From a virus: a stretch of DNA of 64,000 nt. The position numbers and the translations under genes are program-made. Positions within the stretch are counted from its first letter, which is position 1; every line of letters begins with the position of its first letter. The stretch is taken from the IMG/VR virus record IMGVR_UViG_3300046463_000164. One strand, given 5' to 3'. The notes under the pieces were generated by a model that worked only from the letters and a program-made list of their open reading frames with translations, did no database searches and had not been told where the DNA came from. Below are positions 4,038-56,469 of this stretch, piece by piece.

Positions 4038-4793
4038 CTAGAACATAGAGAATAAATCAGCTGATTTCGCGGCTTCCTTTTCTGACTGGATTACTCGGAA
4101 TTCCTTGATCTTCTCAGCAAGCAAGAGCATGTAGTCACGACGATCACGCACAAATACTTGGGCCTCTGAAGCTTTCTCAACTGAGATAATGATCACCAGT
4201 TTCTCAGCTTTCAGACCATACAACTCTTCAAGCATTATAGAATAGCAGGTTGCCTGAAGGAAATAGTTGGTAATGAACTTAGCCAACTTCTCTTTCGTAG
4301 CAGTCTTAAAGTCGATGATAGCCAACTCACCCTTGTACTTGGCGATACAGTCAACTCGACCAGCAAGTCCCATCTTCTTAGACCACATAGGCAATTCAAG
4401 CCCATAGACATCATCGACGTGAATCCGCATCACGCGTTCAATCTGACGATACATGAATTGATAATCGCCGGCCTCTTCAGGCTTAGGATTATTCTTGAGA
4501 AGATATTCAAGTGCCAAGTGGACGCCGGTTCCGCGAGTTGTGCAACGCTCTGACTCAGCATGTGCCTTATCTAGACCCCCAAGCCTTTCTGCCCATCGTT
4601 CGAACCAGCCGTCATCCTTCTCAAGAGAAGCGAGGAAAGTGGTTACTGACGGATATCTTGAACCGTCTGGAGTTACATACAGACGGCCTGTGGGCGAATC
4701 TATATTATAGCAATGATATTCCTCTAGGAAACACTGCCGAAATTTCTTGTCGGCAGTATTCTTGCGAGCTTTTACAAGATCAAATGACGGCAT
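4038..4793 (-). CDS. PD-(D/E)XK exonuclease (Cas4-like phage family)
   Basis: YPSVTT, RGTGVH, AGRVDC, IIDFKT, YFLQATCY; C-terminal ADLFSMF tail. Confidence 0.85.
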   Translation of the reverse strand: MPSFDLVKARKNTADKKFRQCFLEEYHCYNIDSPTGRLYVTPDGSRYPSVTTFLASLEKDDGWFERWAERLGGLDKAHAESERCTTRGTGVHLALEYLLKNNPKPEEAGDYQFMYRQIERVMRIHVDDVYGLELPMWSKKMGLAGRVDCIAKYKGELAIIDFKTATKEKLAKFITNYFLQATCYSIMLEELYGLKAEKLVIIISVEKASEAQVFVRDRRDYMLLLAEKIKEFRVIQSEKEAAKSADLFSMF

Positions 4794-5626: not shown

Positions 5627-6546
5627 TTATCCTCCAGAAAGCCTCGGATGATATTGATCCGTGCTTGTTCATCTAATGTCAAAAACTCTGCCTTGTTCTC
5701 AAACAGGAAGTCGATCAGAGGGTAAAACTCCTCATCAATTCGCTGCTTAGCCTGATGATTGCTATCAGACAGAATACCTTCTAGCAACTTCTTCTCTCCA
5801 GCACGAGCTAGGAATTTGGTGATTAGATAATATGGAGACTTGATCTTCAAAGCCTTACCTGAGCTATTACCATATACCATAAATCCTTCGTGCTTGCATT
5901 CCTTGGCCATCTTCACAACGTCCGAGAAACGCATATTCAGATACGACTCAGGACGTTTACAATCCCAATGGAAGGCAAGGTGGTCCAATACACCCTCCAT
6001 AATAGAAACTGTTTGTCCATTGTAATATACGGTGCCGCCAATAAGCCAAGCGCCCAATTCTTCCTTGATGATATGCGGATCAGTTTCATCGCAAATTTCA
6101 AATATCAAGGTGCAAGGACCAAGCTTCTTGATCTGATTTTCATACTGACTTACATGCTTCTCTACAAGGTCAACAAAATCGCTATCCAAACTGCCAGTAG
6201 TAGAGTAGATGAGATCATCTGATAAATCTGGAGCATAAGTAGCAACTCCCATAAAGCCATTGACCTTACGGACTACAGTGCAAATCTCATCGCGATCAAT
6301 GTCTGTGCCGTTCTCATGATGATTGAACACCTTAGTGAACGGCTTAATGACAACATTGTAATCCTCATCTACTACCAAACCGCGACACTCATTCAAATAT
6401 GGGCTGAGATGCCAAAGGTTATCATAGAATACGCTGTTCTTATACTTGAGAACGAACAGACCGGGATATCGCTTGGACTCCTTCCGAGACACCAGCTTCG
6501 GATTGTTCTCCACAAACTTCTTCAGTTCCAGTCGGTCGATATGCAA
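5623..6546 (-). CDS. RNA ligase, Rnl1 family
   Basis: ECRGLV, motif I RKVNG, FEI, EGF, KIKSPYY. Confidence 0.85.
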   Translation of the reverse strand: MHIDRLELKKFVENNPKLVSRKESKRYPGLFVLKYKNSVFYDNLWHLSPYLNECRGLVVDEDYNVVIKPFTKVFNHHENGTDIDRDEICTVVRKVNGFMGVATYAPDLSDDLIYSTTGSLDSDFVDLVEKHVSQYENQIKKLGPCTLIFEICDETDPHIIKEELGAWLIGGTVYYNGQTVSIMEGVLDHLAFHWDCKRPESYLNMRFSDVVKMAKECKHEGFMVYGNSSGKALKIKSPYYLITKFLARAGEKKLLEGILSDSNHQAKQRIDEEFYPLIDFLFENKAEFLTLDEQARINIIRGFLEDK

Positions 6547-7003
6547 TTACTTTCTCCATAAATTCTTCGTGTGGCTCATAACGAGCCCGCATCTTGGCCA
6601 TAACATCTTCAGGAACGCCGTGAATACTACCATAGCCGTTATCCAACATACTGAATACCGCAATATCCTTGTTCAGCAGTTTAGCGAACCGGATATAGGG
6701 TTTAGCATCTTGGTACGACAGATTTGTGTTGGACACTATCACTGTCTCATCTTGAGCCAAGAAGGCTTCCGCCGTCTGTAGGCACCAACGATGTGCTCTG
6801 GATAGATTTTCGAATTCAAAGTTGTAAGAGCGGTCGGCATTACGATACCAGTACATATCCGCTTCAATATGAATACATCGATTAGCGCGAGCCAAATCCT
6901 TGGCCAGGGTTGATTTACCTGAGCCGGGAATACCGCGAATCAAAATCAGACAACCATCTTCAGCGGCGTGGTCTAAACCGCCGCTCACTTCATAATTTAT
7001 CAA
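6440..7003 (-). CDS. P-loop polynucleotide kinase-like protein (AAA_33)
   Basis: RGIPGSGKST, EAD, AHRWC, VSNT, HGVPE. Confidence 0.85.
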   Translation of the reverse strand: MINYEVSGGLDHAAEDGCLILIRGIPGSGKSTLAKDLARANRCIHIEADMYWYRNADRSYNFEFENLSRAHRWCLQTAEAFLAQDETVIVSNTNLSYQDAKPYIRFAKLLNKDIAVFSMLDNGYGSIHGVPEDVMAKMRARYEPHEEFMEKVIAYRPTGTEEVCGEQSEAGVSEGVQAISRSVRSQV

Positions 7004-21002: not shown

Positions 21003-21680
21003 TTATTTGTGCTTACAGTTATCGTTATGCCATCGCTTAAGGTTTCCTGCAGTACACTCAGTTCCGCAATGAATACAATTATATCTTTCTTGATTACGGC
21101 AAGACTCGCTCATCTTGTTTTTAACTTCTTCAGATACGACCTTATCCTTCAGTTTAGCTAGGCTCTCTGGAGTATGTTTTCTTCCCTTGAATGGAGATTC
21201 GATTTTCCTTTCTAATCTAGTTTTGGAAATCTTGTCCTTAGTTTCCTGATCTCTAGGAATGCCTTTATTCCATGCTTCTACGCCCATACGATTTTCAGAC
21301 ATCCTCCTTTTCTCATCTTCAGTTCTTGGGATACCCTTGTTCCAAGCCGGGATGCCGCTTCTTGTTTCTGATATTCTGGTTTTCTGTTCCTCAGTCAATA
21401 ACCCATTGGTTCCGCCTTCTCGCATATTATACGTATCTGGTCTATCGCAGAATTCTAAAGTGACAATCTCAGCTTCTGCTATATTGGCCAATTCTCTTGT
21501 ATCGAATGTACTTATAATTTCCTTGGTAAAGTTATCTAACCCATACTTATTATGAGCCCTGATGATAGCGACGCCAGACCCCATATATTTGTCTTCATTT
21601 GGATCACATTCACATGATCTGACTCCAACATAAATCTTGCTGTTTATGTTATTTGTTATCTGATATACATAATGGTTCAT
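21003..21680 (-). CDS. Free-standing GIY-YIG (Seg-like) homing endonuclease
   Basis: YVYQITNNINSKIYVG, YMGSG, YN..GG, repeated WNKGIPR NUMOD3 units, C-terminal CxxC...RWH..NCK. Confidence 0.9.
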   Translation of the reverse strand: MNHYVYQITNNINSKIYVGVRSCECDPNEDKYMGSGVAIIRAHNKYGLDNFTKEIISTFDTRELANIAEAEIVTLEFCDRPDTYNMREGGTNGLLTEEQKTRISETRSGIPAWNKGIPRTEDEKRRMSENRMGVEAWNKGIPRDQETKDKISKTRLERKIESPFKGRKHTPESLAKLKDKVVSEEVKNKMSESCRNQERYNCIHCGTECTAGNLKRWHNDNCKHK

Positions 21681-21759: not shown

Positions 21760-22311
21760 ATGGGTATTATTGCATGCGACGTGGATTTGACGGTCGTTGA
21801 TTCGCTAACACCTTGGATGGACTGGTTCAAACAGTTCACGGATAAGCCAGTATTGAATTTGACTCGGACCTATGATTTGGTCACTGAGATGAAAGAGATT
21901 CTGGTTGCCGATGGTCTGAAGAACTATGTAGACCCGATATCATTCTGGCGCAAGCCGGATTTGTATGACAAGTTGGAACCGGTGGAGGGTTCTGTAGAAG
22001 CGCTTAAGCGAGCCCATGATAATGGACAAACTATCGTATTTGTGAGTTCATGCTTCCCAGAACACACCCAGTCTAAGATCAATTTTCTGAAACGTTGCTT
22101 CAATTTCTCAGACGGTTTTATCGCTACGCACGAAAAGCATTACGTTGCTTATAGCGAGTTGATCGACGATAAGCTGGAACATATGGCTCTCGGATTCGAG
22201 CATCGCTATATGGCCAGCCATATCTTGTTCACTGGAATTCGTGCGGATGGTTTCGAGAAGGACCGCGAGCCGTATGAACAGATGAATAGTTGGGATGATT
22301 ACTACCGCTAA
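21760..22311 (+). CDS. 5'(3')-deoxyribonucleotidase-like HAD
   Basis: ACDVDLTVVD, FW...LY..L.P..G, K..FLK..F, LIDD. Confidence 0.8.
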   Translation: MGIIACDVDLTVVDSLTPWMDWFKQFTDKPVLNLTRTYDLVTEMKEILVADGLKNYVDPISFWRKPDLYDKLEPVEGSVEALKRAHDNGQTIVFVSSCFPEHTQSKINFLKRCFNFSDGFIATHEKHYVAYSELIDDKLEHMALGFEHRYMASHILFTGIRADGFEKDREPYEQMNSWDDYYR

Positions 22312-22340: not shown

Positions 22341-23414
22341 ATGAAACATAGATCACGCGATGTATTCTATTGTGACGTCAGAAAAGATGTGATCAAGGCG
22401 GCTAATCCGACTTTGAATGAGGATGTGCTAGCAAACCTATACGAGTTCATCCACGACCGTTACGAGATTCATAAAAAGAAGGATGTTGAGAAGCTGCCTG
22501 CTCCCTGGACGGATAATCCGATTTTCCTACAGGTAAAGTTCACCAACGTTCGTAGAGAGCATGACCGCGAATCTCGCAACGTTATTGATAATATCTGTAA
22601 GGCTGAAGCTAGTCTGAAGGATCGATTCTTCAATATCATTCTGATGCGATTCTGGAATAAGTTTGAATCCTACCAGATCGCAACAGGCGGCAAGTTGCTG
22701 AAGTTTCCTCTGAGCGATGAGGACTTCGAAGCATGCAACAAACGGATTGCAGACAACGAAGCCCATACCTGGTGGAGTGGCGCATACTACACCTGTCCGG
22801 TTCGTAGCTGGCTTGAACGAGTCCATTTTGAGAAGAAGATTCCTACCAGTGAAATCAACTTCGATCAGTCTCCCATCTACTTCGCAAAGTACGCTTTGAC
22901 TGATGAACTATGGGAGAAGATGGTTGCTGCGGAAAGCCCGAAGGAACTGTTTGACTTGTTGACTGCTATTCCGTGGATGGGTAAGTTCCTTGTATACCAG
23001 TGGTTCGTAGATTTTACCTATTGTGAGGATTATTGGTTTAGCGAGAATGAGTACACGGTATCTGGTCCTGGTTGCACTAAGGGCGTTGACTTGCTGTTTA
23101 AGGACCGTGACGGAATGACTCACGAGGAATGTTTGTTCTGGATGCGTGATAATCAGAACAAAATGTTCAACAAGTTTGGTTATAATCCCACAGAGCTATT
23201 CAGCGATTTGGAAGGGTTCGACCGTCACATCAATATCATGAGCTTTGAAAATCTCATGTGTGAACTCCAGAAGTTCCAGAAGTGTAAGGCAGCTATTGTC
23301 GCAGGTAAGAAGCCGAGAGGTAAGGCCAGCTATGACGGCCTTGGAGTTAAGACCGCAAAGAAGGCCAAATCAACGGCTGTTGATAAACCAGTTAATTTGT
23401 TTGAAGGGTTTTGA
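22341..23414 (+). CDS. aGPT-Pplase clade 1-like protein (thymidine hypermodification)
   Basis: PAPWTDNPIF..KFTNVRREHDR, GKFLVYQWFVDFTY, GPGCTKG, ENLMCELQKF. Confidence 0.8.
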   Translation: MKHRSRDVFYCDVRKDVIKAANPTLNEDVLANLYEFIHDRYEIHKKKDVEKLPAPWTDNPIFLQVKFTNVRREHDRESRNVIDNICKAEASLKDRFFNIILMRFWNKFESYQIATGGKLLKFPLSDEDFEACNKRIADNEAHTWWSGAYYTCPVRSWLERVHFEKKIPTSEINFDQSPIYFAKYALTDELWEKMVAAESPKELFDLLTAIPWMGKFLVYQWFVDFTYCEDYWFSENEYTVSGPGCTKGVDLLFKDRDGMTHEECLFWMRDNQNKMFNKFGYNPTELFSDLEGFDRHINIMSFENLMCELQKFQKCKAAIVAGKKPRGKASYDGLGVKTAKKAKSTAVDKPVNLFEGF

Positions 23415-24481: not shown

Positions 24482-25105
24482 ATGAAGTTAAGAAAGTTTT
24501 CAGCCAACAAACCCGCTGCACACCTTCCTGTGAGCATCGAGGATATCAAGTCATATTCTCCTATCGGATACGAGGCTCAAGTTGTTCCGCCTCTAGTCAT
24601 ATACATCTATGATGAAATCGGTCCAGAAGTTGATTATGTAGATTTTGTCCACGCCCTGCGTTATGCGCCAGAAGGACAAGAAATTACAATCCACATCAAC
24701 TCTCCAGGCGGTAATCTCAACTCTTGTCTATCTATCATCAATGCGATTGATGCCTCTGCGGCTAATATCACAACTGTGGTTGACGGGGAAGCTGCGAGCG
24801 CTGCGGCAATGATTTGGTTGTCTGGTCATAACAAAATCATCGCTTCCACCCACGTTTGCGTTATGCTTCACGGCGCGAGCACCGGATTTGGTCATGCAAA
24901 GACCGCCGACATTAAGAATAGCACAACTGCGACAGAACGAATCGTTGAGTCTCTGTTGGATGATCTTACTGAAGGATTCTTGACTGACGATGAACGTTCT
25001 GATATCCGTAAGGGTGTTGACGTCTATCTAACCGGCTCTGATATTGTTGCACGTATCATTACGGATGACAGCGATGAAGTAGATCCAAATACGGAAATTG
25101 AATAA
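24482..25105 (+). CDS. ClpP-like serine protease
   Basis: IHINSPGG, AASAAAMI, VMLH. Confidence 0.85.
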   Translation: MKLRKFSANKPAAHLPVSIEDIKSYSPIGYEAQVVPPLVIYIYDEIGPEVDYVDFVHALRYAPEGQEITIHINSPGGNLNSCLSIINAIDASAANITTVVDGEAASAAAMIWLSGHNKIIASTHVCVMLHGASTGFGHAKTADIKNSTTATERIVESLLDDLTEGFLTDDERSDIRKGVDVYLTGSDIVARIITDDSDEVDPNTEIE

Positions 25106-25631
25106 ACTTAAAAACAAGTTCGTGTTCGCGCACATGAAGGCGGCACGCAGCTATGCTGATGAATTATCTTACTGTGTAAGATTGAAGGTGGGTGCGCTTA
25201 TTGTAAAAGATGAGCGTATGATCTCATTTGGGTATAATGGGATGCCTTCCGGAGAACCAAATGTTTGTGAGCTTGATGATGGCACAACAAATCCTAGGGT
25301 AAGACACGCTGAACCTAATGCTTTGCGTAAGCTCATTAGATCAAACGAGTCTGCGGTTGGATCGATTATGTTTATAACCGATTCTCCTTGTCCTAACTGC
25401 GCAATTGATATTTTTGAGGCTGGTATCGCAGCCGTTGTTTTTGAACGCGAATATCGTGATGTTTCCGGCATTCGATTCCTTCTAAGCAAAGGAGTCAAAG
25501 TGTTTCGCGTAGATACTGAAAAGCGTAATATTTTCGAATTTCAACGCGCTATACAGCCGGTGGATGATGGCCAATCATTCCGTATGGGATTGATGGTATC
25601 TCTATTGACTGGCGACAGTATCTGTTTTTAG
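25098..25631 (+). CDS. cd: dCMP deaminase
   Basis: SYCVRLKVGA, GYNG, HAEPNA, SPCPNC. Confidence 0.9.
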   Translation: MNKLKNKFVFAHMKAARSYADELSYCVRLKVGALIVKDERMISFGYNGMPSGEPNVCELDDGTTNPRVRHAEPNALRKLIRSNESAVGSIMFITDSPCPNCAIDIFEAGIAAVVFEREYRDVSGIRFLLSKGVKVFRVDTEKRNIFEFQRAIQPVDDGQSFRMGLMVSLLTGDSICF

Positions 25632-33864: not shown

Positions 33865-36606
33865 ATGTCCGATAATTTTTACACGAACATCGATGTTCGT
33901 GGTAGCAAGATTTTTCTGCGCTATTTTGAAGATGATAAGCATAAGTCTGAGATCATCGAATTTGCGCCTGAGTTGTATATCCGCACTAATGATGCCGCCA
34001 AAGCCGACGCAATGTCGATGCACGATGAACCACTAGAGGCGGTTCAATTCTCTGATAGTAAGGAAATGAGAAGCTTCATCGAATCTTACAAAGATATCGA
34101 TGGTTTCGCCGTTTATGGTACTGAGAGTATCATGAATCAGTTCGTCTCCAAAGTTTATCCTGGTGAGATTAAGTATGATGGTGCAAAGATTAAGGGAGCG
34201 ATTGTCGACATTGAAACCTTTTCTGGAGATATTGAGGTTCTTCCTGACGGTACGATTGCGCCCATCGATGGTCCGTTTCCTAAGCCAGAAGAAGCAGCGC
34301 ACCCGATCAATCTGATCACACTGTATCATACGGTAGAGAAGAAGTATTACGTTTGGGGTCTGGAGTATTTCAAGGGCCAGTTCATCGGAACCTATAAACA
34401 CAATCCGGCTCATCCCCGCGTAGGTAAGCTGAACGTTGAGTATCGCGGGTTCCGTGAGGAATTCGATATGCTGAACGACTTCGTGGGACTATGGCAACAG
34501 AAGGCTTTCAACTTCTGGAGCGGCTGGTATATTGAGGGCTTTGATAATCCGTATCTGACGAACCGTATTGAGAAGGTTTGCGGAGAGGCGATGAAGAAGA
34601 AACTCAGTCCGTGGAACATGGTTAACAAGAATTCGATTAAGACTGGTTGGGGTGAAGAACAAACCGTCTATGAATTCTTCGGAACCCAGATGCTCGACTA
34701 CAAGCAATTGTTCGAGAAGCACGGCTATATGAATCCGGATGACACAAAGCTGGATACGGTTGCTCGTTTGATTCTGGGCGAAGGTAAGGTTGATTACGCG
34801 GATGAAGGTAATCTGAACACGTTGTATATTCGGAATTATCAGAAGGCTGTAGAATACAACTTGGTTGACGTCGATCTGATCGTTATGATGAACGCCAAGA
34901 AACGATTCTTCGAGTTGACGTACATTCTGGCATATCTATGTAAGGCGAATTATCAGGATACGCTTGGAACAGTGCGTCCGTGGTCGTCGCTGACGTATTC
35001 GATGCTGGTGAATCGCGGTCAACGTCCTAAGATCAAATCAGTCTATGAAGGTGATACGCAGTTTGGCGGTGGGTTCGTCCGGGAAATTAAGGGTGGCCGA
35101 TTCAAGTGGGTCGTATCTTGTGACTTGAATAGTCTATATCCTCACTTGATTCAGCAGTACAATCTCGGAGCGGAAACGATTGTTGAACCTGAAGATTTGC
35201 CGGTAGAGGTTCGGAATATTCCTAACTTCACACTAGATGATCTGGTCAACAAGCGAGTCGATCTGTCGGCGCTGAAGAAGTATAACTTGTGTATGACGGC
35301 GAATCGTGCTTTCTTCCGTCGAGGCAAGAAGTCTATCTTCAATGAAAAGACGCGGGAGATTTATGATTCTCGTAAGAAGGTTAAGAAGCAAATGCTTGCC
35401 TTCGAACAAGAGGAAGTGAATCTGAATGCTAAGATTGGCGACCGTGAGCCGACTCCTGAAGAAATGATGGTGTTGGAAGAACTAGCGATCAAAATCTCGA
35501 CATATGATGTTCATCAACACTCGTTGAAGATTCTGATGAACTCTCTGTTTGGAGCGATCGGCAATAAGTGGTTCCGTGAGTTCTTCGATATTCGGGTTGC
35601 GGAAGGTATCACGTTGTCTGGTAAGCTGTCGATTCTGTGGATCGCCCGTAAGCTAGACGAGTATATGAACAAGGTTCTGAAGTTGGGTGAAGTTGAGCAT
35701 AAGATTCACCACACTAACCGTCCGGCAGCTACAACCCTGGAAGTCGTAAGCGGTCACAACTTCGCAATCTATCAGGATACTGACTCGTGCTATCTGGATA
35801 TGTCTAAGCTGGTAGACAAGTTGTTTACTGAAGAACAGCAAAAGACCGAAGTTGAGAAGATTGTTAACTTCCTGGATAAGTTGTTCTCGGATAAGATTGA
35901 ACCTTATATCGACAGTTGCTATCAAGAACTGGCGGAGTATGTCAACGCGGACGATCAGCGTATGTTCATGAAGCGAGAAGTTATTGCGACTTCGGCAATC
36001 TGGTCTGCGAAGAAACGTTACACTATGTTGGTGGCCGACTCTGAAGGCGTTCGTTACTTCCCTGATCTGTATCATAAGACGGTTGGTCTAGATGCAGTTA
36101 AGGCGTCGTCTCCGAAGCATTGCCGGGACTGGATGTTGGAAGCATACAAGATTGCTCTTCAAGGAACCGAAGAAGAATTGCAAGACTTCTGCGCAGTGAA
36201 GAAGAAAGAGTTTATGTCTTTGCCGGTAGAACGGGTTGCAACTCCGTCGGGTGTGAATGGATTGGAGAAGTATTTCGATCCTGAAAACGTCTATACGAAG
36301 GGAGCACCGAAACACGTTAAAGCGGCTTTGTATCATAACTATATTATCCAGAAGAATAAGATTCCTGGCATAGCTAAGATTCAGTCTGGTGATAAGATTA
36401 AGTTTGTTGAGCTGAGACAGCCTAATCCTTATGGTTGCGAGTGTATCGCTTTCCAGGGTAAGTTGCCGCCAGAGTTTAAGTTGGAGAAGTATATCAACTA
36501 TGAGTCTAACTTCGAACGGTCGTTTACATCGTTGCTGGATAATCTGTTGAAATCTATTAATTGGAGTTCTACTCGTCAAGCATCTGTAATGGACTGGTTT
36601 AGCTAA
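33865..36606 (+). CDS. 43: DNA polymerase, family B (gp43)
   Basis: DIET, FD.PYL.NR, YNLVDV, DLNSLYP, KILMNSLFG, YQDTDS, KKRY. Confidence 0.97.
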   Translation: MSDNFYTNIDVRGSKIFLRYFEDDKHKSEIIEFAPELYIRTNDAAKADAMSMHDEPLEAVQFSDSKEMRSFIESYKDIDGFAVYGTESIMNQFVSKVYPGEIKYDGAKIKGAIVDIETFSGDIEVLPDGTIAPIDGPFPKPEEAAHPINLITLYHTVEKKYYVWGLEYFKGQFIGTYKHNPAHPRVGKLNVEYRGFREEFDMLNDFVGLWQQKAFNFWSGWYIEGFDNPYLTNRIEKVCGEAMKKKLSPWNMVNKNSIKTGWGEEQTVYEFFGTQMLDYKQLFEKHGYMNPDDTKLDTVARLILGEGKVDYADEGNLNTLYIRNYQKAVEYNLVDVDLIVMMNAKKRFFELTYILAYLCKANYQDTLGTVRPWSSLTYSMLVNRGQRPKIKSVYEGDTQFGGGFVREIKGGRFKWVVSCDLNSLYPHLIQQYNLGAETIVEPEDLPVEVRNIPNFTLDDLVNKRVDLSALKKYNLCMTANRAFFRRGKKSIFNEKTREIYDSRKKVKKQMLAFEQEEVNLNAKIGDREPTPEEMMVLEELAIKISTYDVHQHSLKILMNSLFGAIGNKWFREFFDIRVAEGITLSGKLSILWIARKLDEYMNKVLKLGEVEHKIHHTNRPAATTLEVVSGHNFAIYQDTDSCYLDMSKLVDKLFTEEQQKTEVEKIVNFLDKLFSDKIEPYIDSCYQELAEYVNADDQRMFMKREVIATSAIWSAKKRYTMLVADSEGVRYFPDLYHKTVGLDAVKASSPKHCRDWMLEAYKIALQGTEEELQDFCAVKKKEFMSLPVERVATPSGVNGLEKYFDPENVYTKGAPKHVKAALYHNYIIQKNKIPGIAKIQSGDKIKFVELRQPNPYGCECIAFQGKLPPEFKLEKYINYESNFERSFTSLLDNLLKSINWSSTRQASVMDWFS

Positions 36607-41175: not shown

Positions 41176-41859
41176 ATGTCTAAAGTTGTTAAGTTGTCGG
41201 CAGAAACTCTGCAAGTGTTGAAGATTGCATCTGGTATTAACAAGTCGCTGGCCTTCAAGGCGGGCAACGAGATCAAGACGGTTTCGGCAACCGGTTCGAT
41301 CGTCATGGAAGCAACGATCACTGAAACCTTCCCGGCTGACTTTGCGGTCTATGAACTGCCGAAGCTGCTTGGTGTTCTGGCGCTGCCGTCGTTCAAGGAT
41401 GCTGAGCTGGTGTTTGAAGACGGCGTTGATACGCATATGATCATCAAGGCCGGTTCGTCCAAGATCAAGTATTTCTACACCCCTGAAGACTTCGCCAAGC
41501 ATCCGGGCAAGTCTATCGTTCTGCCGAAGGTTGACGTTGAAGTCAATCTCCAGAAGGATACGCTGGAAGCATTCGAGAAGGCAGCTGCCGCTCTGGGCCA
41601 CAAGTTCATGAAGTTCGCCGTGAAGGACAAGGAATTGTTCCTGGTCGCGACGACTCCTGAACTGGATACGTCCAACGACTATATTGTCGATATGGGTGCT
41701 CAAGATTCGGACGACTTCGAAGCGATGGTGAAGCTCGAAAATCTGAAGCTGGTGCCGGGCGATTTCAACGTCCAACTCCTGAAGATGGGTGGCCGTGGTA
41801 TTAGTAAGTGGTCGCATCTGACCCGTAAAATTAACACGTTCATCGGTCTGGAGCTGTAA
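41176..41859 (+). CDS. 45: Sliding clamp gp45
   Basis: KLSAETLQVLK..SGINKS, FP.DFAVYEL..LL; start at AAGGA-ATG 41176. Confidence 0.92.
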   Translation: MSKVVKLSAETLQVLKIASGINKSLAFKAGNEIKTVSATGSIVMEATITETFPADFAVYELPKLLGVLALPSFKDAELVFEDGVDTHMIIKAGSSKIKYFYTPEDFAKHPGKSIVLPKVDVEVNLQKDTLEAFEKAAAALGHKFMKFAVKDKELFLVATTPELDTSNDYIVDMGAQDSDDFEAMVKLENLKLVPGDFNVQLLKMGGRGISKWSHLTRKINTFIGLEL

Positions 41860-45493: not shown

Positions 45494-45727
45494 ATGAGCT
45501 ATCTTACGCAGCAACAACGCCGTAGGTTTCTAGTCGATATCACCAGAGCACAATGGGCAGTTGATGTTGGTAAATTGCTTGATGATATCGAAGTGGCTGT
45601 GGCCAACGCTATCCTAACTAAGCAAGCATCTGAGCGCAGATTCGCAGAGGCACCCGGAGAGCCAGAAAGAACTGGCTTGCCTCATTATGATATTGAACCT
45701 GAAGAAAATTGGGGATACGGAAATTGA
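45494..45727 (+). CDS. Hypothetical protein
   Basis: 77-aa ORF. Confidence 0.55.
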   Translation: MSYLTQQQRRRFLVDITRAQWAVDVGKLLDDIEVAVANAILTKQASERRFAEAPGEPERTGLPHYDIEPEENWGYGN

Positions 45728-46248
45728 AAACGTCTAAAGAATGGTGGGATGAAACGAAGTCGGATACAGTTAAGATCAATAACTGGCTCCAAGCTCAATA
45801 CACCGGAGAAATCACAGCAGCAGGACGTATTGTTGATTTCGGCGAAAAGTATGCCGCGACGGACAAGGAGAAGAAGATTCTCAACTTTATCGCGGATCAA
45901 GAGCGGACTCACGCAGATTGGATCAAGACTCTATTGGTGACCCGTGGTATCGAACCGAAGGTAGGAAATGCTAACAAAAGGTATTGGAAAGAAGCGTTGC
46001 CGGGTATCTCCGACTTTGCAACCGGTGCGGCAGTTGCGGCTCATGCGGAGGCAATGCGTCTTGAGCGAATTCGCGCGATTGCGGAGGATGAAGAGTCTCC
46101 AGCTGATATTCGCTTCACGTTCCTGAGAATCTTGGTGGACGAGATTGGTCATGAGCGCATGTTCCGTCGGCTGAGCAACGCTGAAGCTTTGGAAGCGACT
46201 CTTGGTCATCACGAAGCTGGGGCTAAATCTTTGGGTCTAGTTATCTAA
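45724..46248 (+). CDS. Ferritin-like diiron protein
   Basis: E / QERTH / E / DEIGH ligand spacing. Confidence 0.7.
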   Translation: MKTSKEWWDETKSDTVKINNWLQAQYTGEITAAGRIVDFGEKYAATDKEKKILNFIADQERTHADWIKTLLVTRGIEPKVGNANKRYWKEALPGISDFATGAAVAAHAEAMRLERIRAIAEDEESPADIRFTFLRILVDEIGHERMFRRLSNAEALEATLGHHEAGAKSLGLVI

Positions 46249-46916: not shown

Positions 46917-47531
46917 ATGCAAACTCAAAACGCCATCAAGATGATCGCCTCGTTCAACCGTGGCATCTTCGTTCCTCTGATCGGAGCCCATCAGCAACCG
47001 GTCGCGGTGCACAACCTTCTTAAGGAGAAGGGTGCGCGAGTGAGCCTGGACCATGTCCGGGCAATGATGGAAGGCCGCGAGAGCGAGTTCAAGGACTTCG
47101 AAGTTGTTCAGGTGATCGGCCATCACGCCGGGGCTCAACAAGCTCAGGCGCAACAACCGGCACCGGTTCGTCGGAATCCGATGCCAAGTGGCCTACCGGG
47201 TCGCTTGGTGAATCCCGGAACCCAACAGACCAATTTGACATCGCCTGCTCCCGCACAAGCGCGTGGGCGCGGTCGTGAATACGCCCCGAGCGGCGTGATC
47301 AAACCGCTGAAGCGTAATACGACTTACGCAAAGCTCATGGAAATGCTCGTTAAGGGCGCGACCATGAAGGAGTTGCTTGCAGCAACGACGAATACGACCG
47401 CAGGCGGGGTCAATGACGTCTTGTCTTGGCAGATCAAGCAGCGTGGTTACGGCCTGCGCTTCGATCAAGGATCGGGCAAGTATTTTCTTGTGATGCCGGA
47501 AGGTCACAAGGAGTTGAAGTACGCGGATTGA
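46917..47531 (+). CDS. Hypothetical early protein with possible C-terminal winged helix
   Basis: Strong codon bias; LMEMLVKGATMKELL...KQRGYGL. Confidence 0.65.
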   Translation: MQTQNAIKMIASFNRGIFVPLIGAHQQPVAVHNLLKEKGARVSLDHVRAMMEGRESEFKDFEVVQVIGHHAGAQQAQAQQPAPVRRNPMPSGLPGRLVNPGTQQTNLTSPAPAQARGRGREYAPSGVIKPLKRNTTYAKLMEMLVKGATMKELLAATTNTTAGGVNDVLSWQIKQRGYGLRFDQGSGKYFLVMPEGHKELKYAD

Positions 47532-51203: not shown

Positions 51204-51232
51204 TAGACTTAACATAGCCCATCGGCTATAAT
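51204..51232 (+). promoter_or_regulatory. Sigma70-type promoter for the glycosylation operon
   Basis: TAGACT-N17-TATAAT. Confidence 0.75.
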
Positions 51233-51256
51233 AGGAAGGTTAATAAAGGAGAAAGA

Positions 51257-52450
51257 ATGAAGATTGCTGCAATTTATTGGCCCACATCTTCAGTGGGCGG
51301 CATTAACACGTTGTTTGAGTCTCTACGGAAAGCGGCCATTGCCCAGGGTGATGAGTTCGACGTCATCCGTTGCGGTAATCTGAAAACCATCAAACCCGAG
51401 AAGTTTGCTGAACCGAAGTTGATTCGCGGTGGGGATACTTTCATTACGGTTCATGGCGATTCGTCGCATCACCCGGATCAGATCCAAGGCACGATCAAGT
51501 GGCTTGAAGAAAATTATGACGCGGTGTATTTCGGCTACTTGTGTCCGCACGAAAACAAGGCGTATGGCAGCGAGCCGGTATTCATGCCGATGTATACTGA
51601 TCTGAAACTTCCAAAGGTATCGTGTATTGTTGATGCCTATTGGGATTCGTATGCAGATTGGGCAATTCCCTGCTTCCCTCATATTAAGCGGACTGTGGTA
51701 TCGCAAATCGCCTACGCTGAACCGTTGGTGAAGATGGGTATGCCGGTAGAAGCGATCAAGGCTCCCATTACTCCGAAGCTGAATATTCAATCCGTTCGCA
51801 GCGACGAATCTCTGACGGTCTGGACTTCCCAATGGAAGACGATCAAAGGTATTGACAAGCTGCTTCCTCATATTCCGGCAATCTCGGAAGTCTCTAAGGT
51901 GGAGTTGTATTCCAATGGGATTCTGTACTATCAGATTCGGGAAGATGAAGAGTGGAAAGCTGCAGTCGGTAAGGATCACTTTAAGGAGTTCAACGGTTAC
52001 GGAAAGGCTGAGTTCTTTGGGTATGTTTCAACAGATGAAATCCCGGAGATTCTGACCCGTTCTTGGTTTATGATCGACCTTCAAGGTATTGGCAAGCCTA
52101 AGCATGAAGCATACCGGAATGGCGCTTACAACTATACGACCATCGAGGCGTTGCTGTATGGGTCTTGTCCTATCCTGCACGCTCAGGCGCTGAAGTCTAT
52201 TATCCCCAAGGAATTCTTCTTGACGATTGAGCATCCGAAGGAAATTGCAGAACTGATTCGTACCAGCAAGGATTTTGCTCTTGATCCGGTCCGTCAGAAG
52301 AACGCGCGTGAATGGGTATTGGACATTCACTCGGATTCAGCGACGTATAACGTCATCAAGGAGTCGTTCGCGCTCCCTGATCCGGTTGTGGATATCTCTG
52401 GTTTCTTGAAGAAAGATGAGCCAGCTGATCTTTTCTCTATGTTTGGTTGA
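51257..52450 (+). CDS. GT-B glycosyltransferase
   Basis: MKIA..Y....GGI.T start, KGID.LL, FFGYV, YTTIEALLYG..PI; C-terminal ADLFSMFG. Confidence 0.75.
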   Translation: MKIAAIYWPTSSVGGINTLFESLRKAAIAQGDEFDVIRCGNLKTIKPEKFAEPKLIRGGDTFITVHGDSSHHPDQIQGTIKWLEENYDAVYFGYLCPHENKAYGSEPVFMPMYTDLKLPKVSCIVDAYWDSYADWAIPCFPHIKRTVVSQIAYAEPLVKMGMPVEAIKAPITPKLNIQSVRSDESLTVWTSQWKTIKGIDKLLPHIPAISEVSKVELYSNGILYYQIREDEEWKAAVGKDHFKEFNGYGKAEFFGYVSTDEIPEILTRSWFMIDLQGIGKPKHEAYRNGAYNYTTIEALLYGSCPILHAQALKSIIPKEFFLTIEHPKEIAELIRTSKDFALDPVRQKNAREWVLDIHSDSATYNVIKESFALPDPVVDISGFLKKDEPADLFSMFG

Positions 52451-52461
52451 GGTTGCTAAGT

Positions 52462-53061
52462 ATGAGTGTGAATAAGAAGGTTGTAGTTCTAGTTGAACCC
52501 CACGCGGATGACATCTATCTCAGTTGTCATCAACATGCTGTAGATTGGGTGAAGGAAGGAAAGGTTGTAGTGATCGTCACCGTCTTTTCGGGAACCCGGA
52601 AACGGGCGCGCGACGGCACCAGCTACGCAGATGCAATCGGTGCTACCTGGATCGGCTTAGGGTTTGATGAGTTCGCTGAGCCTGATATCCGCAATGCGTA
52701 TTTGAACACGCCGTTTGATCCCCTGCCGGGTAATCTCAGCCTGATCTATGAGGCTAGTGAGGTTCAGGTAGTTTCCCCGCTAGGTATCCAGAACCCCGAT
52801 CACCAGGCTGTTCGTGAGTGGCTAAAGGCTTCTAATGACCAGTTGCGCTATTATGCGGAGATTCCGTATTATACGAAGCTGAAGAATCAAGAAGAAGTCA
52901 ACGGACTGATTGTTGGCAAGGTGATTGATAGTATCAAGAAGCCTAAGCACACAAAGGCTGACGAGAAGTATTGGAAGTGTTTTAAGGATCAAGCGAAGTT
53001 TTTCCACTTTAACCCGCCGGAATCTTACAAGGATGTCCCGGAACTTTTGGTGACAGATTAA
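52462..53061 (+). CDS. PIG-L/LmbE-family N-deacetylase
   Basis: EPHADDIYLS, VTVFSG, PLG..NPDH, YYAEIPY. Confidence 0.8.
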   Translation: MSVNKKVVVLVEPHADDIYLSCHQHAVDWVKEGKVVVIVTVFSGTRKRARDGTSYADAIGATWIGLGFDEFAEPDIRNAYLNTPFDPLPGNLSLIYEASEVQVVSPLGIQNPDHQAVREWLKASNDQLRYYAEIPYYTKLKNQEEVNGLIVGKVIDSIKKPKHTKADEKYWKCFKDQAKFFHFNPPESYKDVPELLVTD

Positions 53062-53714
53062 TGGCTGTAGTCAAGCATATACATATCATCGGAGCAGGCG
53101 GTCATGCCAATGTGGTGTTGGATATTGTTGAAGAGTTGAGGAAATATGTAGGAATCAACATCTATGCCGATTCCTATGATCCCGTAGCCAACAATAGATT
53201 TTGGGACTATCCTATCAAGGGATCGGCCACTGACTTCTTTTCAGAAGTCAAATACAACTGGAATCATGACTATATTGTGGCCATCGGAGACAACTCCGCT
53301 CGCGGTAGGTTGTCGGAGAGTTTCAAGTTGGCGACTAAGCGTAAGCCCGTCACCCTCATCCATCCTAAAGCTATAGTGAGCGATAGGGCCAAGATTGGCC
53401 ACGGCACGGTGATTATGGCAGGAGCAGTTGTTGGTCCTGGGGCTGTCATTGGCGATAATTGTATTATCAATCACGGAGCAACGGTTGATCATGATTGTAT
53501 GCTTGAAGATGCAGTTCATATCTGTCCTGGAGCGCATATTGCTGGTGCAGTCAAGGTCGGAAAGGGCGTTCAGGTCGGCATCGGTGCCAGTGTTATACAA
53601 GGCATAAGTATTGGTGAATATACCACCATCGGTGCCGGAGCAGCAGTTGTAAGTGATATCGCCGGTTGGGTAACAGCGGTCGGAGTCCCGGCCAAGGTAA
53701 TTAAGGAATATTGA
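53061..53714 (+). CDS. PglD/NeuD-type sugar N-acetyltransferase (left-handed beta-helix)
   Basis: IIGAGGHA, VAIGDN..R, IHP.A, VDHDC, hexapeptide repeats, GVPAK. Confidence 0.9.
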   Translation: MAVVKHIHIIGAGGHANVVLDIVEELRKYVGINIYADSYDPVANNRFWDYPIKGSATDFFSEVKYNWNHDYIVAIGDNSARGRLSESFKLATKRKPVTLIHPKAIVSDRAKIGHGTVIMAGAVVGPGAVIGDNCIINHGATVDHDCMLEDAVHICPGAHIAGAVKVGKGVQVGIGASVIQGISIGEYTTIGAGAAVVSDIAGWVTAVGVPAKVIKEY

Positions 53715-53715
53715 A

Positions 53716-54900
53716 ATGTTGAATGCAGGTATTAGTCCGTGGCCGTTTTATGCTCAAGATGAACGTGATGCGGTTCAGAACATATTGATTTCAGGCAAGG
53801 TGAATCAGTGGACGGGCACGGAAGTCAAGGAATTTGAGAAAGAGTTCGCAGAGTATATTGGGACATCATATGCAGTAGCGGTATCAAACGGCACGGTGGC
53901 GTTGGATCTGATTCTCCAATATTGTTTGTTGGGTGCCATCGATGCAGAAGTTATTGTGACGTCCCGGACTTTTATTGCATCGGCTAGTTCCATTATCATG
54001 GCGGGAGCAAAGCCGGTATTTGTGGACGTTGATCCGAAGTCTGGCAATATCACTCCTGAAGCAATTCGAGCAGCGGTCACGGAGAATACTGTAGCAATCA
54101 TCTGTGTTCACTTGGCTGGTTGGCCTTGTGATATGGACCCGATCATGGAGATTGCAGCTGATAATGGACTGTATGTAATCGAAGATTGTGCACAGGCTCA
54201 TGGCGCGATCTATAAGGGTCGCAAGGTCGGTTCCATCGGTCACGCGTCTGCTTGGTCTTTCTGTCAAGACAAGATCATGTCGACAGGCGGTGAAGGTGGT
54301 ATGATCACAACCAACACGTCATTCATTTGGACCTATTGTTGGTCCAAGAAGGATCACGGCAAGAGTTATTTTGACGCCGTGATGCGTAAGGATCATGCTC
54401 CTGGTTTCCGTTGGTTGCATAGTAGTATCGGGTCGAATTACCGTATGACCGAAATTCAAGCCTCAATCGGTCGTATTCAGCTACGCAAGCTGGAAAGTTG
54501 GGTCAGCACCCGCAATTATATTGCGGACGAGTTGAATAAGGTGGCTTGGCCGCTTTCTGCTGTTCGTATTGAATGGTGCGACTTCCCCGATAGTCGCCAT
54601 GCTAAGTACAAGCATTATATGTATGTAAATCCTGAAGGTCTCAATGAAGGTTGGGATCGGGAAAGAATAATCAAGGAATTGATTGCCGAAGGAGTTCCCT
54701 GCTACCACGGTTCTTGTTCAGAAGTTTATCTGGAAAATGCGTTTGACGGACATTACAAAACTCTGCCGGTAGCAAAGGAGTTGGGTGAGACTAGCCTGAT
54801 GTTCTTGGTTCATCCGACCATTAACATGATGGAAGTCCACAATATGACTGAAGGACTTCGCAAGGTGCTCACAGCCGCTTCAAAATCTTGTAGAGAATGA
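53716..54900 (+). CDS. DegT/DnrJ PLP aminotransferase (PglE / Neisseria PglC-type)
   Basis: NGTVAL, TFIASA, IEDCAQAHGA, SFCQDKIMSTGGEGG, NYRMTE. Confidence 0.92.
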   Translation: MLNAGISPWPFYAQDERDAVQNILISGKVNQWTGTEVKEFEKEFAEYIGTSYAVAVSNGTVALDLILQYCLLGAIDAEVIVTSRTFIASASSIIMAGAKPVFVDVDPKSGNITPEAIRAAVTENTVAIICVHLAGWPCDMDPIMEIAADNGLYVIEDCAQAHGAIYKGRKVGSIGHASAWSFCQDKIMSTGGEGGMITTNTSFIWTYCWSKKDHGKSYFDAVMRKDHAPGFRWLHSSIGSNYRMTEIQASIGRIQLRKLESWVSTRNYIADELNKVAWPLSAVRIEWCDFPDSRHAKYKHYMYVNPEGLNEGWDRERIIKELIAEGVPCYHGSCSEVYLENAFDGHYKTLPVAKELGETSLMFLVHPTINMMEVHNMTEGLRKVLTAASKSCRE

Positions 54901-56018
54901 CGGATATAAGAATTAAGGACACTCCCAGCAATATTGCTGATATATTGATGGGACGTGATCCCGTTGAACCCGATGCAAAACTAATCCAAGAAAATATCAA
55001 AGACAAAGCAGTGTTGGTGACTGGCGCAGGTGGTTCCATCGGGTCAGAGATTTGTCGTCAAGTCGCCAACCAAGGTCCGAGTGTATTGGTATTGTATGAG
55101 TTGAACGAGTTTGCTCTCTATACAATCCACGTCGAGCTAATGCGAACTCACCCGCACGTTAAGGTCATCCCCGCTTTGGGCTCGATCTTGAATTGTTCGC
55201 GGGTGTCGTATTTCCTCAGCAAGTTTAACATCAATACCATTTATCATGCGGCGGCGTATAAGCATGTTCCAATGGTAGAGTATAATATCACTGAGGGCGT
55301 ATATAACAACTTTATTGGAACTGCTGCCTTGGTTACAACAGCAGACGGCAATGTAGATACTTTTGTGCTTGTGTCTACTGATAAGGCGGTTAGACCGACT
55401 AATGTGATGGGGGCAACTAAGCGTTTGTCTGAGATGTATGTTCAGGCCGTGCAGGAACGTCGTCATCGGACTAAGACAACGTTCTCAATGGTTAGGTTCG
55501 GGAATGTTCTTGGGTCCTCAGGATCAGTGATTCCGTTGTTTCTAGAGCAGATTGCAAGGGGAGAACCTTTGACGGTCACCCATCCTGATATCACACGCTA
55601 CTTCATGTCGATTCCTGAGGCTGCTCAGTTGGTTATTCAGGCAGGAGCAATGGCAACTGGCGGTGAAGTATTCGTCCTGGATATGGGTGAGTCTGTGAAG
55701 ATTGTAGATATGGCCAAGCGTTTGCTTCAACACTACAATCTACCTGAAAATCATTATGAGATCACTGGGTTGCGTCCCGGCGAGAAGCTGTATGAAGAGT
55801 TGTTGATTGGTGATTCGGTCGGAAACACATACCATCCTAGGATTATGAAAGCGAATGAATTTCATCCTTCATATTCCCGTATGCTCGACATTTACGATAT
55901 AATAGAAGAATGCTACCATAGTATGGATTTCAAGAGACTGTTTAACGTGCTAGAGCACAATGTTTCTGGATTCAATCATTCCGGCGAGATAAAGGATCAT
56001 TTGTATGAGCATAATTAA
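54897..56018 (+). CDS. UDP-GlcNAc 4,6-dehydratase (PglF/CapD catalytic domain only)
   Basis: TGAGGSIGSE, HAAAYKHVP, STDKAVRPTNVMGATK, VRFGNVLGSSGSV, GLRPGEKLYEEL; no N-terminal TM region. Confidence 0.92.
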   Translation: MTDIRIKDTPSNIADILMGRDPVEPDAKLIQENIKDKAVLVTGAGGSIGSEICRQVANQGPSVLVLYELNEFALYTIHVELMRTHPHVKVIPALGSILNCSRVSYFLSKFNINTIYHAAAYKHVPMVEYNITEGVYNNFIGTAALVTTADGNVDTFVLVSTDKAVRPTNVMGATKRLSEMYVQAVQERRHRTKTTFSMVRFGNVLGSSGSVIPLFLEQIARGEPLTVTHPDITRYFMSIPEAAQLVIQAGAMATGGEVFVLDMGESVKIVDMAKRLLQHYNLPENHYEITGLRPGEKLYEELLIGDSVGNTYHPRIMKANEFHPSYSRMLDIYDIIEECYHSMDFKRLFNVLEHNVSGFNHSGEIKDHLYEHN

Positions 56019-56469
56019 GGCGGTAGACCGCGCCTACAAAACGATGAAAGAGCGTAATTGGAACACCATCTATTGGGCGGTGGACCTACACGGCGTGTGT
56101 CTGAAGTCGAATTATCAGCAAGGTGGATACAGTTGGATCAATATCCACGCGCGTCGAGTATTGAAGCTCATCAGCCGACTTCCTGAAACTAAGATCATCT
56201 TGTGGTCGTCGGTGTATGATTTGGAGAAGGGAGATATCATCGACTTCTTTGAAGAACATGGTATTCATGTTTCAGACTTCAACAGCAATCTGAGCGAGGG
56301 CAATACTCACGTTTCTGATTTCTCGCAGAAGTTTTATTTCAGCGTCCTGTTGGACGACAAAGCGGGTTTCGATCCTGAAACCGATTGGTTGGCAATTGAA
56401 AACTATCTTTATGATAAAGGAATATTAAATGCAAACGAAGGAAAAGCCGGTAGTACATTACATTGGTGA
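56005..56469 (+). CDS. HAD-like protein
   Basis: WAVDLHGV, ILWSS, K.YF..LLDDKAGF. Confidence 0.7.
   Translation: MSIIKAVDRAYKTMKERNWNTIYWAVDLHGVCLKSNYQQGGYSWINIHARRVLKLISRLPETKIILWSSVYDLEKGDIIDFFEEHGIHVSDFNSNLSEGNTHVSDFSQKFYFSVLLDDKAGFDPETDWLAIENYLYDKGILNANEGKAGSTLHW

Follow-up and report, generated by a model that had tools for sequence, protein, structure and literature searches.

A T4-like phage operon with bacillosamine genes, a glycosyltransferase and a deacetylase: a candidate pathway for amino-sugar modification of 5-hydroxymethyluracil DNA

The operon and its proteins

The stretch of virus DNA analysed here, 64,000 nucleotides of IMG/VR record IMGVR_UViG_3300046463_000164 (the window), carries a six-gene operon that encodes a glycosyltransferase (GT), a PIG-L-like deacetylase, a set of enzymes for the conversion of uridine diphosphate N-acetylglucosamine (UDP-GlcNAc) to UDP-2,4-diacetamido-2,4,6-trideoxyglucose (UDP-diNAcBac) and a small HAD-like protein. 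We propose it as a candidate system for glycosylation of 5-hydroxymethyluracil (hmU) in the phage's own DNA. The window belongs to a phage that is T4-like but distant from T4. Its family B DNA polymerase is 40% identical to the polymerase of Ralstonia phage RSP15, and it also encodes topoisomerase II subunits, the clamp loader gp44/gp62, a gp45-type clamp, gp32, UvsW, ribonucleotide reductase, baseplate hub and gp5 parts, and rIIA.

The operon occupies positions 51257-56469 on the + strand, in the order GT, PIG-L-like protein, acetyltransferase, aminotransferase, dehydratase and HAD-like protein. The gene junctions measure +11, -1, +1, -4 and -14 nt, from which we take the genes to be tightly coupled, and all six were found where an earlier note on this DNA, made from the letters alone, had placed them. 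The operon is surrounded by replication and early-type genes and adjoins rIIA. Its features are as follows.

51204..51232, + strand: sigma70-like promoter match TAGACT-17-TATAAT upstream of the operon (10/12 consensus)
51257..52450, + strand: GT-B glycosyltransferase of 397 aa, candidate hmU-DNA glycosyltransferase of a new, nearly virus-only family (predicted fold, synteny)
52424..52447, + strand: clamp-type tail ADLFSMFG of the GT (...PADLFSMFG), conserved in homologues of >60% identity
52462..53061 (alternative TTG start at 52447), + strand: LmbE/PIG-L-type de-N-acetylase (profile, fold, metal-site residues)
53061..53714, + strand: NeuD/PglB/VioB-family 4-amino-sugar N-acetyltransferase, PglD-like (NCBIfam, PDB match)
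53716..54900, + strand: DegT-family UDP-4-keto-6-deoxy-GlcNAc aminotransferase, similar to PDB 7L7X and Pcryo_0638 (Pfam, PDB match)
54897..56018, + strand: soluble PglF-type UDP-GlcNAc 4,6-dehydratase, 373 aa (Pfam, PDB match, motifs)
56005..56469, + strand: small HAD-like protein, kept at the operon end in T4-like relatives (weak HAD likeness)

The sigma70-type promoter that the earlier note had seen in front of the operon is present as a 10/12 match, but such matches are not enriched regionally, with 18 promoter-type matches in the region against 13.2 +/- 3.6 expected. All six operon proteins are free of membrane segments, no gene for a multi-pass membrane protein lies close to them, and no Pfam family of phosphoglycosyl transferases, flippases or oligosaccharyltransferases occurred among the scanned window proteins; both scans agree with the claim that phosphoglycosyl transferase, flippase and membrane proteins are missing from the operon. 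A megablast search with the operon against 50,697 phage records gave no match.

The first gene was without a match in Pfam (E<=0.01), PHROG and NCBIfam, and a profile of the GT family found no PDB sequence even at E<=10. Pfam and PDB profile searches thus leave its sequence outside PF11440, the family of T4 alpha-glucosyltransferase (AGT). Its predicted structure is a two-domain GT-B fold (predicted local distance difference test score, pLDDT, 93.5), so that the assignment to the GT-B enzymes made in the earlier note has a confident model behind it. The closest solved fold is T4 AGT, as the comparison with T4 AGT and BGT suggested in that note brought out: five AGT entries took ranks 1-5 in VIA-align (Z 25.6-26.6, root-mean-square deviation 3.8-4.1, 339-342 residues aligned), followed by HepE (Z 25.1) and BshA (Z 24.9). 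Foldseek returned the same set of matches and placed the GT among retaining GT4-like enzymes, with BshA and MshA among the best. Among the top matches in a viral structure library were GTs from SP-15, a T-glycosylated phage, as well as proteins that carry the annotation 'DNA alpha-GT'. Because the Z margin of AGT over other folds is small, we read this as a likeness of the GT and as no proof of function.

The family is almost confined to viruses. Matches to the GT came from only 94 cluster representatives among 1.84 billion, and from a single 2-kb contig of a metagenome-assembled genome among 185,579 prokaryote species genomes. The GT protein was found, too, on contigs of up to 174 kb, and a tblastn search of the 50,697 phage records gave no match in a cultured phage.

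The product of the second gene scored 25.9 bits against Pfam PIG-L PF02585, below the cut-off of 28.2, with a match over the N-terminal 50 residues only. A profile built from 27 homologues matched only LmbE/PIG-L deacetylases in the PDB (Dbv21, Orf2*, MshB, BshB and TT1542), and a confident model (pLDDT 91.4) had Dbv21/Orf2*, chitobiose deacetylase, BshB and MshB as top Foldseek matches. The motifs HADD at residue 14 and NPDH at 111 are present, and the metal-site residues H14, D16, D17 and H114 are invariant across the 27 homologues; by homology the protein has an intact LmbE metal site. The call of a PIG-L deacetylase in the earlier note therefore holds by profile, fold and metal-site motif, even with the sub-threshold Pfam score. 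The tblastn search of the phage records gave no match for this protein.

The three genes that follow correspond to the textbook route from UDP-GlcNAc to UDP-diNAcBac, as shown by homology, and each is of the type that had been recognised from the letters. The acetyltransferase reached 202 bits against TIGR03570 (NeuD/PglB/VioB; cut-off 160.8), had the Neisseria 'pilin glycosylation protein' 4M98 as its best PDB match and is closest to the acetyltransferase domain of Neisseria PglB, PerB, VioB and PglD. For the aminotransferase, DegT scored 298 bits in Pfam and the best PDB match was 7L7X (478 bits); 7L7X is cited in a study in which the crystallised aminotransferase, Pcryo_0638, yields UDP-2-acetamido-4-amino-2,4,6-trideoxyglucose (PMC8040287). 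The dehydratase scored 378 bits against Polysacc_synt_2, and its best PDB match, Campylobacter jejuni PglF/WlaL 5BJU (287 bits), stands well above CapD (165), FnlA/CapE (138) and PseB (132), which places it with the retaining dehydratases of PglF type. It carries the motifs STDK and VMGATK and has no membrane segment, in agreement with the soluble PglF/CapD dehydratase with VMGATK that had been described. A pathway to pseudaminic or legionaminic acid was considered and rejected, since the dehydratase is PglF-type and no synthase, epimerase or CMP-transferase follows.

The last gene is phage-specific and only weakly HAD-like, with DLHGV as motif I; a gene is thus present at the place where the earlier note had a HAD protein, but its HAD likeness is weak. 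It is not specifically tied to the glycosylation system. In the T4-like clade the operon has a constant frame of GT, PIG-L-like gene, a slot for an insert, HAD-like gene and rIIA. The slot holds the three bacillosamine genes in the window and in loci L060 and L061, whose GTs are 79-80% identical to that of the window, and a second GT4 in L001, L002 and L062 (GT 63-64% identical). Most other GT carriers are without an insert and have the GT and the deacetylase alone. This variation suggests a lineage-specific, arms-race-like diversification of the glycan. As most carriers have no insert, a default donor supplied by the host is suggested, probably UDP-GlcNAc used directly by analogy with MshA/MshB and BshA/BshB, and the relatives with a second tailed GT would probably build a disaccharide.

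Hydroxymethyluracil genes and clamp-type tails in the company of the GT

To place the GT in its genomic context, relatives were gathered from 47 distinct loci and the open reading frames (ORFs) of these loci were searched with iterated profiles. Pairing was counted over the 29 distinct GT loci having at least 800 nt downstream. Since a PIG-L-like gene lies near the GT in 27 of these 29 informative loci, we regard GT and deacetylase as a pair. The window further encodes an HMUDK_hel protein and two enzymes of nucleotide metabolism:

21760..22311, + strand: NT5C-like deoxyribonucleotidase, nucleotide pool editing
22341..23414, + strand: HMUDK_hel (M6 gp55 / 'aGPT-Pplase I') family protein without P-loop, ending VNLFEGF (PF18723)
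25098..25631, + strand: dCMP deaminase, dUMP supply

In 19 loci a HMUDK_hel gene lies within 6 kb of the GT, and behind it there usually come genes for a homologue of thymidylate synthase (TS) and for a YfbR-like HD nucleotidase. The co-occurrence with hydroxymethylases in other phages that the earlier note had proposed as a check is therefore found, the TS homologue usual beside HMUDK_hel in GT loci being of the dUMP-hydroxymethylase type. These HMUDK_hel-linked loci are siphophage-like, with a Dda-like helicase and PolA. In L006, L012 and L028 the genes are ordered Dda helicase, GT, PIG-L-like, HMUDK_hel, TS, HD and PolA. Phage M6, whose 5-NedU pathway has been reconstituted experimentally (PMC8989533), has the order Dda helicase ... 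gp51 amino acid:DNA transferase (AADT), gp52 pyridoxal-phosphate (PLP) enzyme, gp53 radical SAM enzyme, gp54 P-loop kinase, gp55 HMUDK_hel, gp58 TS, gp59 HD and polymerase. Because the two orders run parallel, the GT/PIG-L pair appears to sit in the slot of the thymidine-hypermodification cassette of M6. The pair is found with hmU genes in unrelated phage lineages.

The linked TS homologues keep the catalytic Cys146 as well as Asp169 and Asn177 (E. coli ThyA numbering) and have L143D/H147N in common with phage M6 gp58. Homologues with this gp58 signature are present in the siphophage loci, in L014 and in G001, a complete T4-like relative of 170,684 bp that is the record of L002. Position 177 decides between dUMP and dCMP, position 169 marks the 5-hydroxycytosine synthases and position 143 tracks hydroxymethylation (PMC13326640). 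As the homologues carry Asn177 together with the gp58 signature, hmU is the predicted target base. 5-Hydroxymethylcytosine (hmC) was rejected as the target since the residue at ThyA position 177 is Asn, not Asp. The TS homologue of G001 (141758-142846, - strand) was missed by the PF00303 screen and was found with a hidden Markov model made from the TS homologues of the clusters (E 1e-63). This false negative means that negative family screens of phage records need a second look.

The window gene at 22341-23414 matched Pfam HMUDK_hel PF18723 over its full length (212.7 bits) and has relatives in M6 gp55 (L059 14261-15232), a ViI protein and RP13 ORF120, and RP13 g120 has been named 'aGPT-Pplase I' in one paper. 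We rejected the idea that it is a 5-hmdU (5-hydroxymethyldeoxyuridine) DNA kinase because a Walker A motif is lacking there and in most homologues. The true kinase family is PF18748 (M6 gp54), and AADT is PF18724 (M6 gp51). By homology search, gp54 kinase homologues are absent from the window and from G001 and occur in L010 only among the GT loci; no homologue of AADT, the PLP enzyme or the radical SAM enzyme was found in the window, in G001 or in any GT locus searched. The absence of the kinase fits a direct glycosylation of the hmU hydroxyl. In L063, the genes for HMUDK_hel and GT overlap by one base, and HMUDK_hel may recognise or flip hmU for the GT. HMUDK_hel occurs as a stand-alone protein without a kinase domain in hmU phages of differing modification chemistry, and its Pfam name invites mis-annotation as a kinase.

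A connection to replication is suggested by the C-terminus of the GT. The proteins concerned, apart from the GT and HMUDK_hel, are:

4038..4793, - strand: PD-(D/E)XK exonuclease (Cas4-like, phrog_298), tail SADLFSMF, same as GT (motif scan)
33865..36606, + strand: family B DNA polymerase with a looser tail, SVMDWFS, outside the motif scan matches
41176..41859, + strand: gp45-type sliding clamp, proposed tail docking partner

The 348 window ORFs of at least 60 aa were scanned for the C-terminal motif [DNSE][LM][FW]x(1-2)[FW]. Only three end in it, namely the GT (ADLFSMFG), HMUDK_hel (VNLFEGF) and the exonuclease (ADLFSMF), each of them either a DNA-acting protein or a member of the hmU set; the exonuclease is likely a further clamp client. 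The clamp-type tail that the earlier note had read at the end of the GT follows a linker of variable length and sequence and is kept by every homologue of >60% identity, all of them from T4-like contigs. At <=52% identity the tail is missing, except in P0035 (L063), which comes from an independent T4-like lineage. The tail-less homologues stem from PolA-type or other phages, so that GT tails are seen only in T4-like carriers, and the second GTs of the relatives end in SLFNDWS or SLFDLL. T4 alpha-GT is known to co-purify with gp45 (PMC13216743, confirming Sommer et al. 2004). Docking of the clamp trimer with a GT fragment (residues 350-397) gave a score of 0.32, whereas the best control stayed at 0.06. 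This is a weak score: in calibration, 58 of 80 solved complexes passed, as did 2 of 110 mismatched pairs, and the passes at <=0.60 comprised only 7 of the 80 solved complexes plus both of these mismatches. At least 16% of the contacts were in common between runs, with a partner pLDDT of at least 32, and since clamp-peptide complexes have already been solved, the pass may reflect memory.

Further genes were noted in these surroundings. A homologue of M6 gp49 (DUF3489-containing) is encoded at 46917-47531 (+ strand) of the window and also in G001, L001, L002, L014 and L045, in the last of which it lies directly upstream of the GT; it may be a further conserved member of the hmU gene set. In L010 (11116-14024), a HNH-AP2 homing-type gene and a Methyltransf_23 methyltransferase are inserted between GT and PIG-L, followed by a PF18748 5-hmdU DNA kinase, and the homologue P0090 (589 aa) is a natural methyltransferase-GT fusion. 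Methylation of sugar or base may be a further variant. An AAA_33 P-loop kinase gene in the window (187 aa, 6440-7003, - strand) adjoins an RnlA-like RNA ligase gene (5623-6546, - strand) and is kept in G001; the two are probably a Pnk-like RNA repair pair. Between gp32 and the NT5C-like nucleotidase, a gene for a GIY-YIG/homing endonuclease (21003-21680, - strand) has been inserted in the reverse orientation, and a gene for a rubrerythrin/COQ7-like di-iron protein (45709-46248, + strand) lies among nucleotide metabolism genes.

Proposed pathway and rival explanations

Taken together, the AGT-like fold, the synteny with hmU genes and the conserved tail lend circumstantial support to the DNA glycosylation that the earlier note had put forward. 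We propose that the operon O-glycosylates 5-hmdU in the phage's own DNA with diNAcBac and then de-N-acetylates the sugar, and we give this reading a little better than an even chance. The phage would replace thymine with hmU. Judged by their close homology to characterised enzymes, the PglF-type dehydratase, the DegT aminotransferase and the PglD/PglB-type acetyltransferase would convert UDP-GlcNAc of the host to UDP-diNAcBac. The T4-AGT-like GT, as fold, synteny and tail suggest, would move the sugar onto the 5-hmdU hydroxyl in newly made phage DNA, probably while held at the fork by its C-terminal tail docked on the gp45-type clamp. In keeping with the chemistry of its family, the LmbE/PIG-L-type enzyme would finally deacetylate one amine of the sugar on the DNA; by the example of MshB, BshB and Dbv21, this is most likely the amine at position 2. 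The outcome would be a protonatable amine, that is a cationic sugar, in the major groove, and its likely benefit protection against restriction, host nucleases and other DNA-targeting defences.

A wider proposal, which we put forward tentatively and hold to be somewhat short of an even chance, is that an undescribed and widespread family of GTs, AGT-like in fold and unlike any known GT in sequence, works together with an LmbE deacetylase to place cationic amino sugars on hmU, glucosamine in most phages and mono-deacetylated bacillosamine in the phage studied here. In T4-like phages, clamp-binding tails would tie the GTs to the replisome, and the swapping of cassettes would diversify the glycan.

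A number of findings speak against glycosylation of 5-hmdU by the operon. The case is circumstantial, as it is made from homology, synteny and a short motif only. The GT has no sequence match among the known DNA GT families, and AGT is separated from the GT4-like folds as a whole by a few Z units at most. Elsewhere, diNAcBac is a constituent of glycans on proteins and surfaces. A TS homologue is absent from the 64-kb window, and the PIG-L-like protein and the sugar-nucleotide enzymes, like the HAD-like protein, are without a tail. Two prophage-like loci, L005 and L017, set among a GpA terminase and bacterial flanking genes, carry GT and PIG-L with no hmU gene within 10 kb, and a Pfam search of their neighbour genes found nothing; in these loci the pair perhaps acts on a different substrate, or hmU is made by some other route. 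HMUDK_hel stands beside the GT in nearly every informative locus, and the true chemistry may involve it. Finally, the AAA_33 kinase at 6440-7003 (- strand) is a possible DNA kinase.

The prominence of HMUDK_hel leads to one of the rival explanations, in which hmU DNA is modified by other chemistry, with HMUDK_hel and GT joining an amino sugar to the C5-methylene via nitrogen or phosphate, or with the GT glycosylating some other group carried by the DNA. On this view the deacetylase would free the amine that acts as the nucleophile. HMUDK_hel nearly always adjoins the GT, to the point of overlapping genes in L063, and in L010 the gene for a true 5-hmdU DNA kinase separates PIG-L from HMUDK_hel. 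Known thymidine hypermodifications put amines on activated hmU (PMC8989533). HMUDK_hel is related to the 'aGPT-Pplase' proteins, and SP-15-type modifications include phosphate-linked sugars. We nevertheless judge this explanation unlikely. Homologues of the P-loop hmU kinase and of AADT are absent from the window, G001 and the GT loci except L010, the GT has an ordinary nucleotide-sugar GT-B fold nearest T4 AGT, which O-glycosylates a hydroxymethyl base, and LmbE enzymes normally work after glycosyl transfer.

Two further explanations take the acceptor away from DNA. The GT and the deacetylase might make a soluble GlcN-type small molecule, a thiol-like cofactor or infection metabolite, in the manner of BshA/BshB or MshA/MshB. 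BshA and MshA are indeed among the best structural matches of the GT, as are BshB and MshB for the deacetylase, and these pathways classically run from a GT to an LmbE enzyme. However, no locus contains a BshC/MshC-type ligase or an acceptor-forming enzyme, cellular genomes hold next to no member of the GT family, the pair keeps strict synteny with the genes for hmU DNA and the clamp-type tail occurs only in phages with a gp45 clamp, and we therefore consider such a metabolite improbable. We see an equally slender chance that the bacillosamine made by the operon goes onto virion proteins or changes the host surface, for instance to mask the virion or to block superinfection. The use of diNAcBac in Campylobacter and Neisseria glycosylation is of this kind. 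The nearest relatives of the three sugar enzymes work in the glycosylation of proteins and O-antigens, and surface glycans are commonly built by GT4-like enzymes, but the operon has no phosphoglycosyl transferase, flippase, oligosaccharyltransferase or membrane segment. Its neighbours are rIIA and other genes of replication or early type, a sigma70-like promoter match precedes it, the tail of the GT resembles tails of DNA enzymes, and most relatives have GT and deacetylase only, inside hmU nucleotide and DNA clusters far from structural genes.

Significance and comparison with known systems

The earlier note had not recognised the modification as a described one. In agreement with this, our literature search, which had incomplete coverage, found no paper on an amino sugar or bacillosamine on DNA or on an amino-sugar-on-hmU product, no paper on a GT and LmbE pair in hmU clusters and none on 'HMUDK_hel'; PMC13458397 and PMC11946847 contain nothing on the GT/PIG-L pair. 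If 5-hmdU is glycosylated as we propose, this would be the first amino-sugar modification of a nucleobase, and bacillosamine would have its first known role on DNA. Known thymidine modifications carry amines through kinase/transferase chemistry or sugars through a long linker; an amino sugar bound directly to hmU as a glycoside would add a new chemical class to the natural DNA bases. An hmU-DNA glycosyltransferase could be used to tag and map 5-hmU, as T4 beta-GT is for 5-hmC, and a deacetylase acting on DNA-bound sugars would be a second new enzyme family. DNA hypermodifications decide the outcome of encounters between phages and restriction enzymes, CRISPR and DNA glycosylase defences, and they make some phage genomes sequencing-resistant. 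A GT and PIG-L-like gene beside HMUDK_hel and a TS homologue provide a simple genomic marker for such phages in metagenomes.

The sugar-nucleotide part of the operon has its counterparts in the UDP-diNAcBac pathways of C. jejuni (PglF/PglE/PglD), Neisseria (PglD/PglC/PglB-ATD) and Psychrobacter (Pcryo_0612/0638/0637), which consist of the same three enzyme types and give strong sequence matches. Unlike there, the dehydratase has no membrane domain, an undecaprenyl-phosphate transferase, a flippase and an oligosaccharyltransferase are absent, and the sugar genes lie inside a phage DNA-modification operon. The succession of GT and deacetylase resembles MshA/MshB of mycothiol, BshA/BshB of bacillithiol and Dbv21/Orf2* of teicoplanin-type antibiotics, in which an N-acetylhexosamine is added and its 2-amine then unmasked, and both folds are alike. 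The acceptors of those systems are, however, inositol phosphate, malate and a glycopeptide, whereas DNA is the likely acceptor here, and by sequence the GT and the PIG-L-like protein lie far outside the known families.

Among DNA modifications, sugars on thymine-derived bases are found in phages SP-15, YerA41 and Carin-5 and in base J of kinetoplastids. Base J is made by a GT-A enzyme following JBP oxidation. Carin-5 encodes GTs with a deacetylase, and the GTs of SP-15 are structural neighbours of the GT described here, but in SP-15, YerA41 and Carin-5, which belong to a PolA-UDG lineage, the sugars are attached via a dihydroxypentyl-phosphate linker. The thymidine hypermodification clusters of M6, ViI, PaMx11 and phiW-14, with a 5-hmdU DNA kinase and AADT (PMC8989533), have a backbone of dUMP-hydroxymethylase-type TS, HD/NT5C nucleotidase and HMUDK_hel in common with the GT loci and a variable cassette in the same slot, and here, too, the product is probably a thymidine with an amine tethered at C5. 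The GT loci differ in having no P-loop kinase, AADT, PLP or radical SAM enzyme, L010 excepted for the kinase; as their cassette consists of a nucleotide-sugar GT and an LmbE deacetylase, the tether would be a sugar.

The nearest precedent for the proposed reaction is T4 AGT (PF11440), the best structural match, a soluble phage enzyme of GT-B fold that acts on a hydroxymethylpyrimidine in duplex DNA, and T4 alpha-GT binds the gp45 clamp, the role we propose for the GT tail. The two enzymes have no detectable sequence similarity. The base is hmC in T4 and predicted to be hmU here, the donor is UDP-glucose in T4 as against a predicted UDP-diNAcBac or UDP-GlcNAc, and the GT described here is followed by a deacetylase, which T4 does not have. 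The kinds of modification known so far comprise glucosyl-hmC (T4), arabinosyl-5-hydroxycytosine (RB69, DLP3) and glycans on TET-made hmC, together with linker-borne sugars on thymine (SP-15, YerA41, Carin-5) and amine-bearing thymidines formed via a kinase. Compared with the known glycosylation of hydroxymethylpyrimidines, two enzyme families and the class of sugar would be new.

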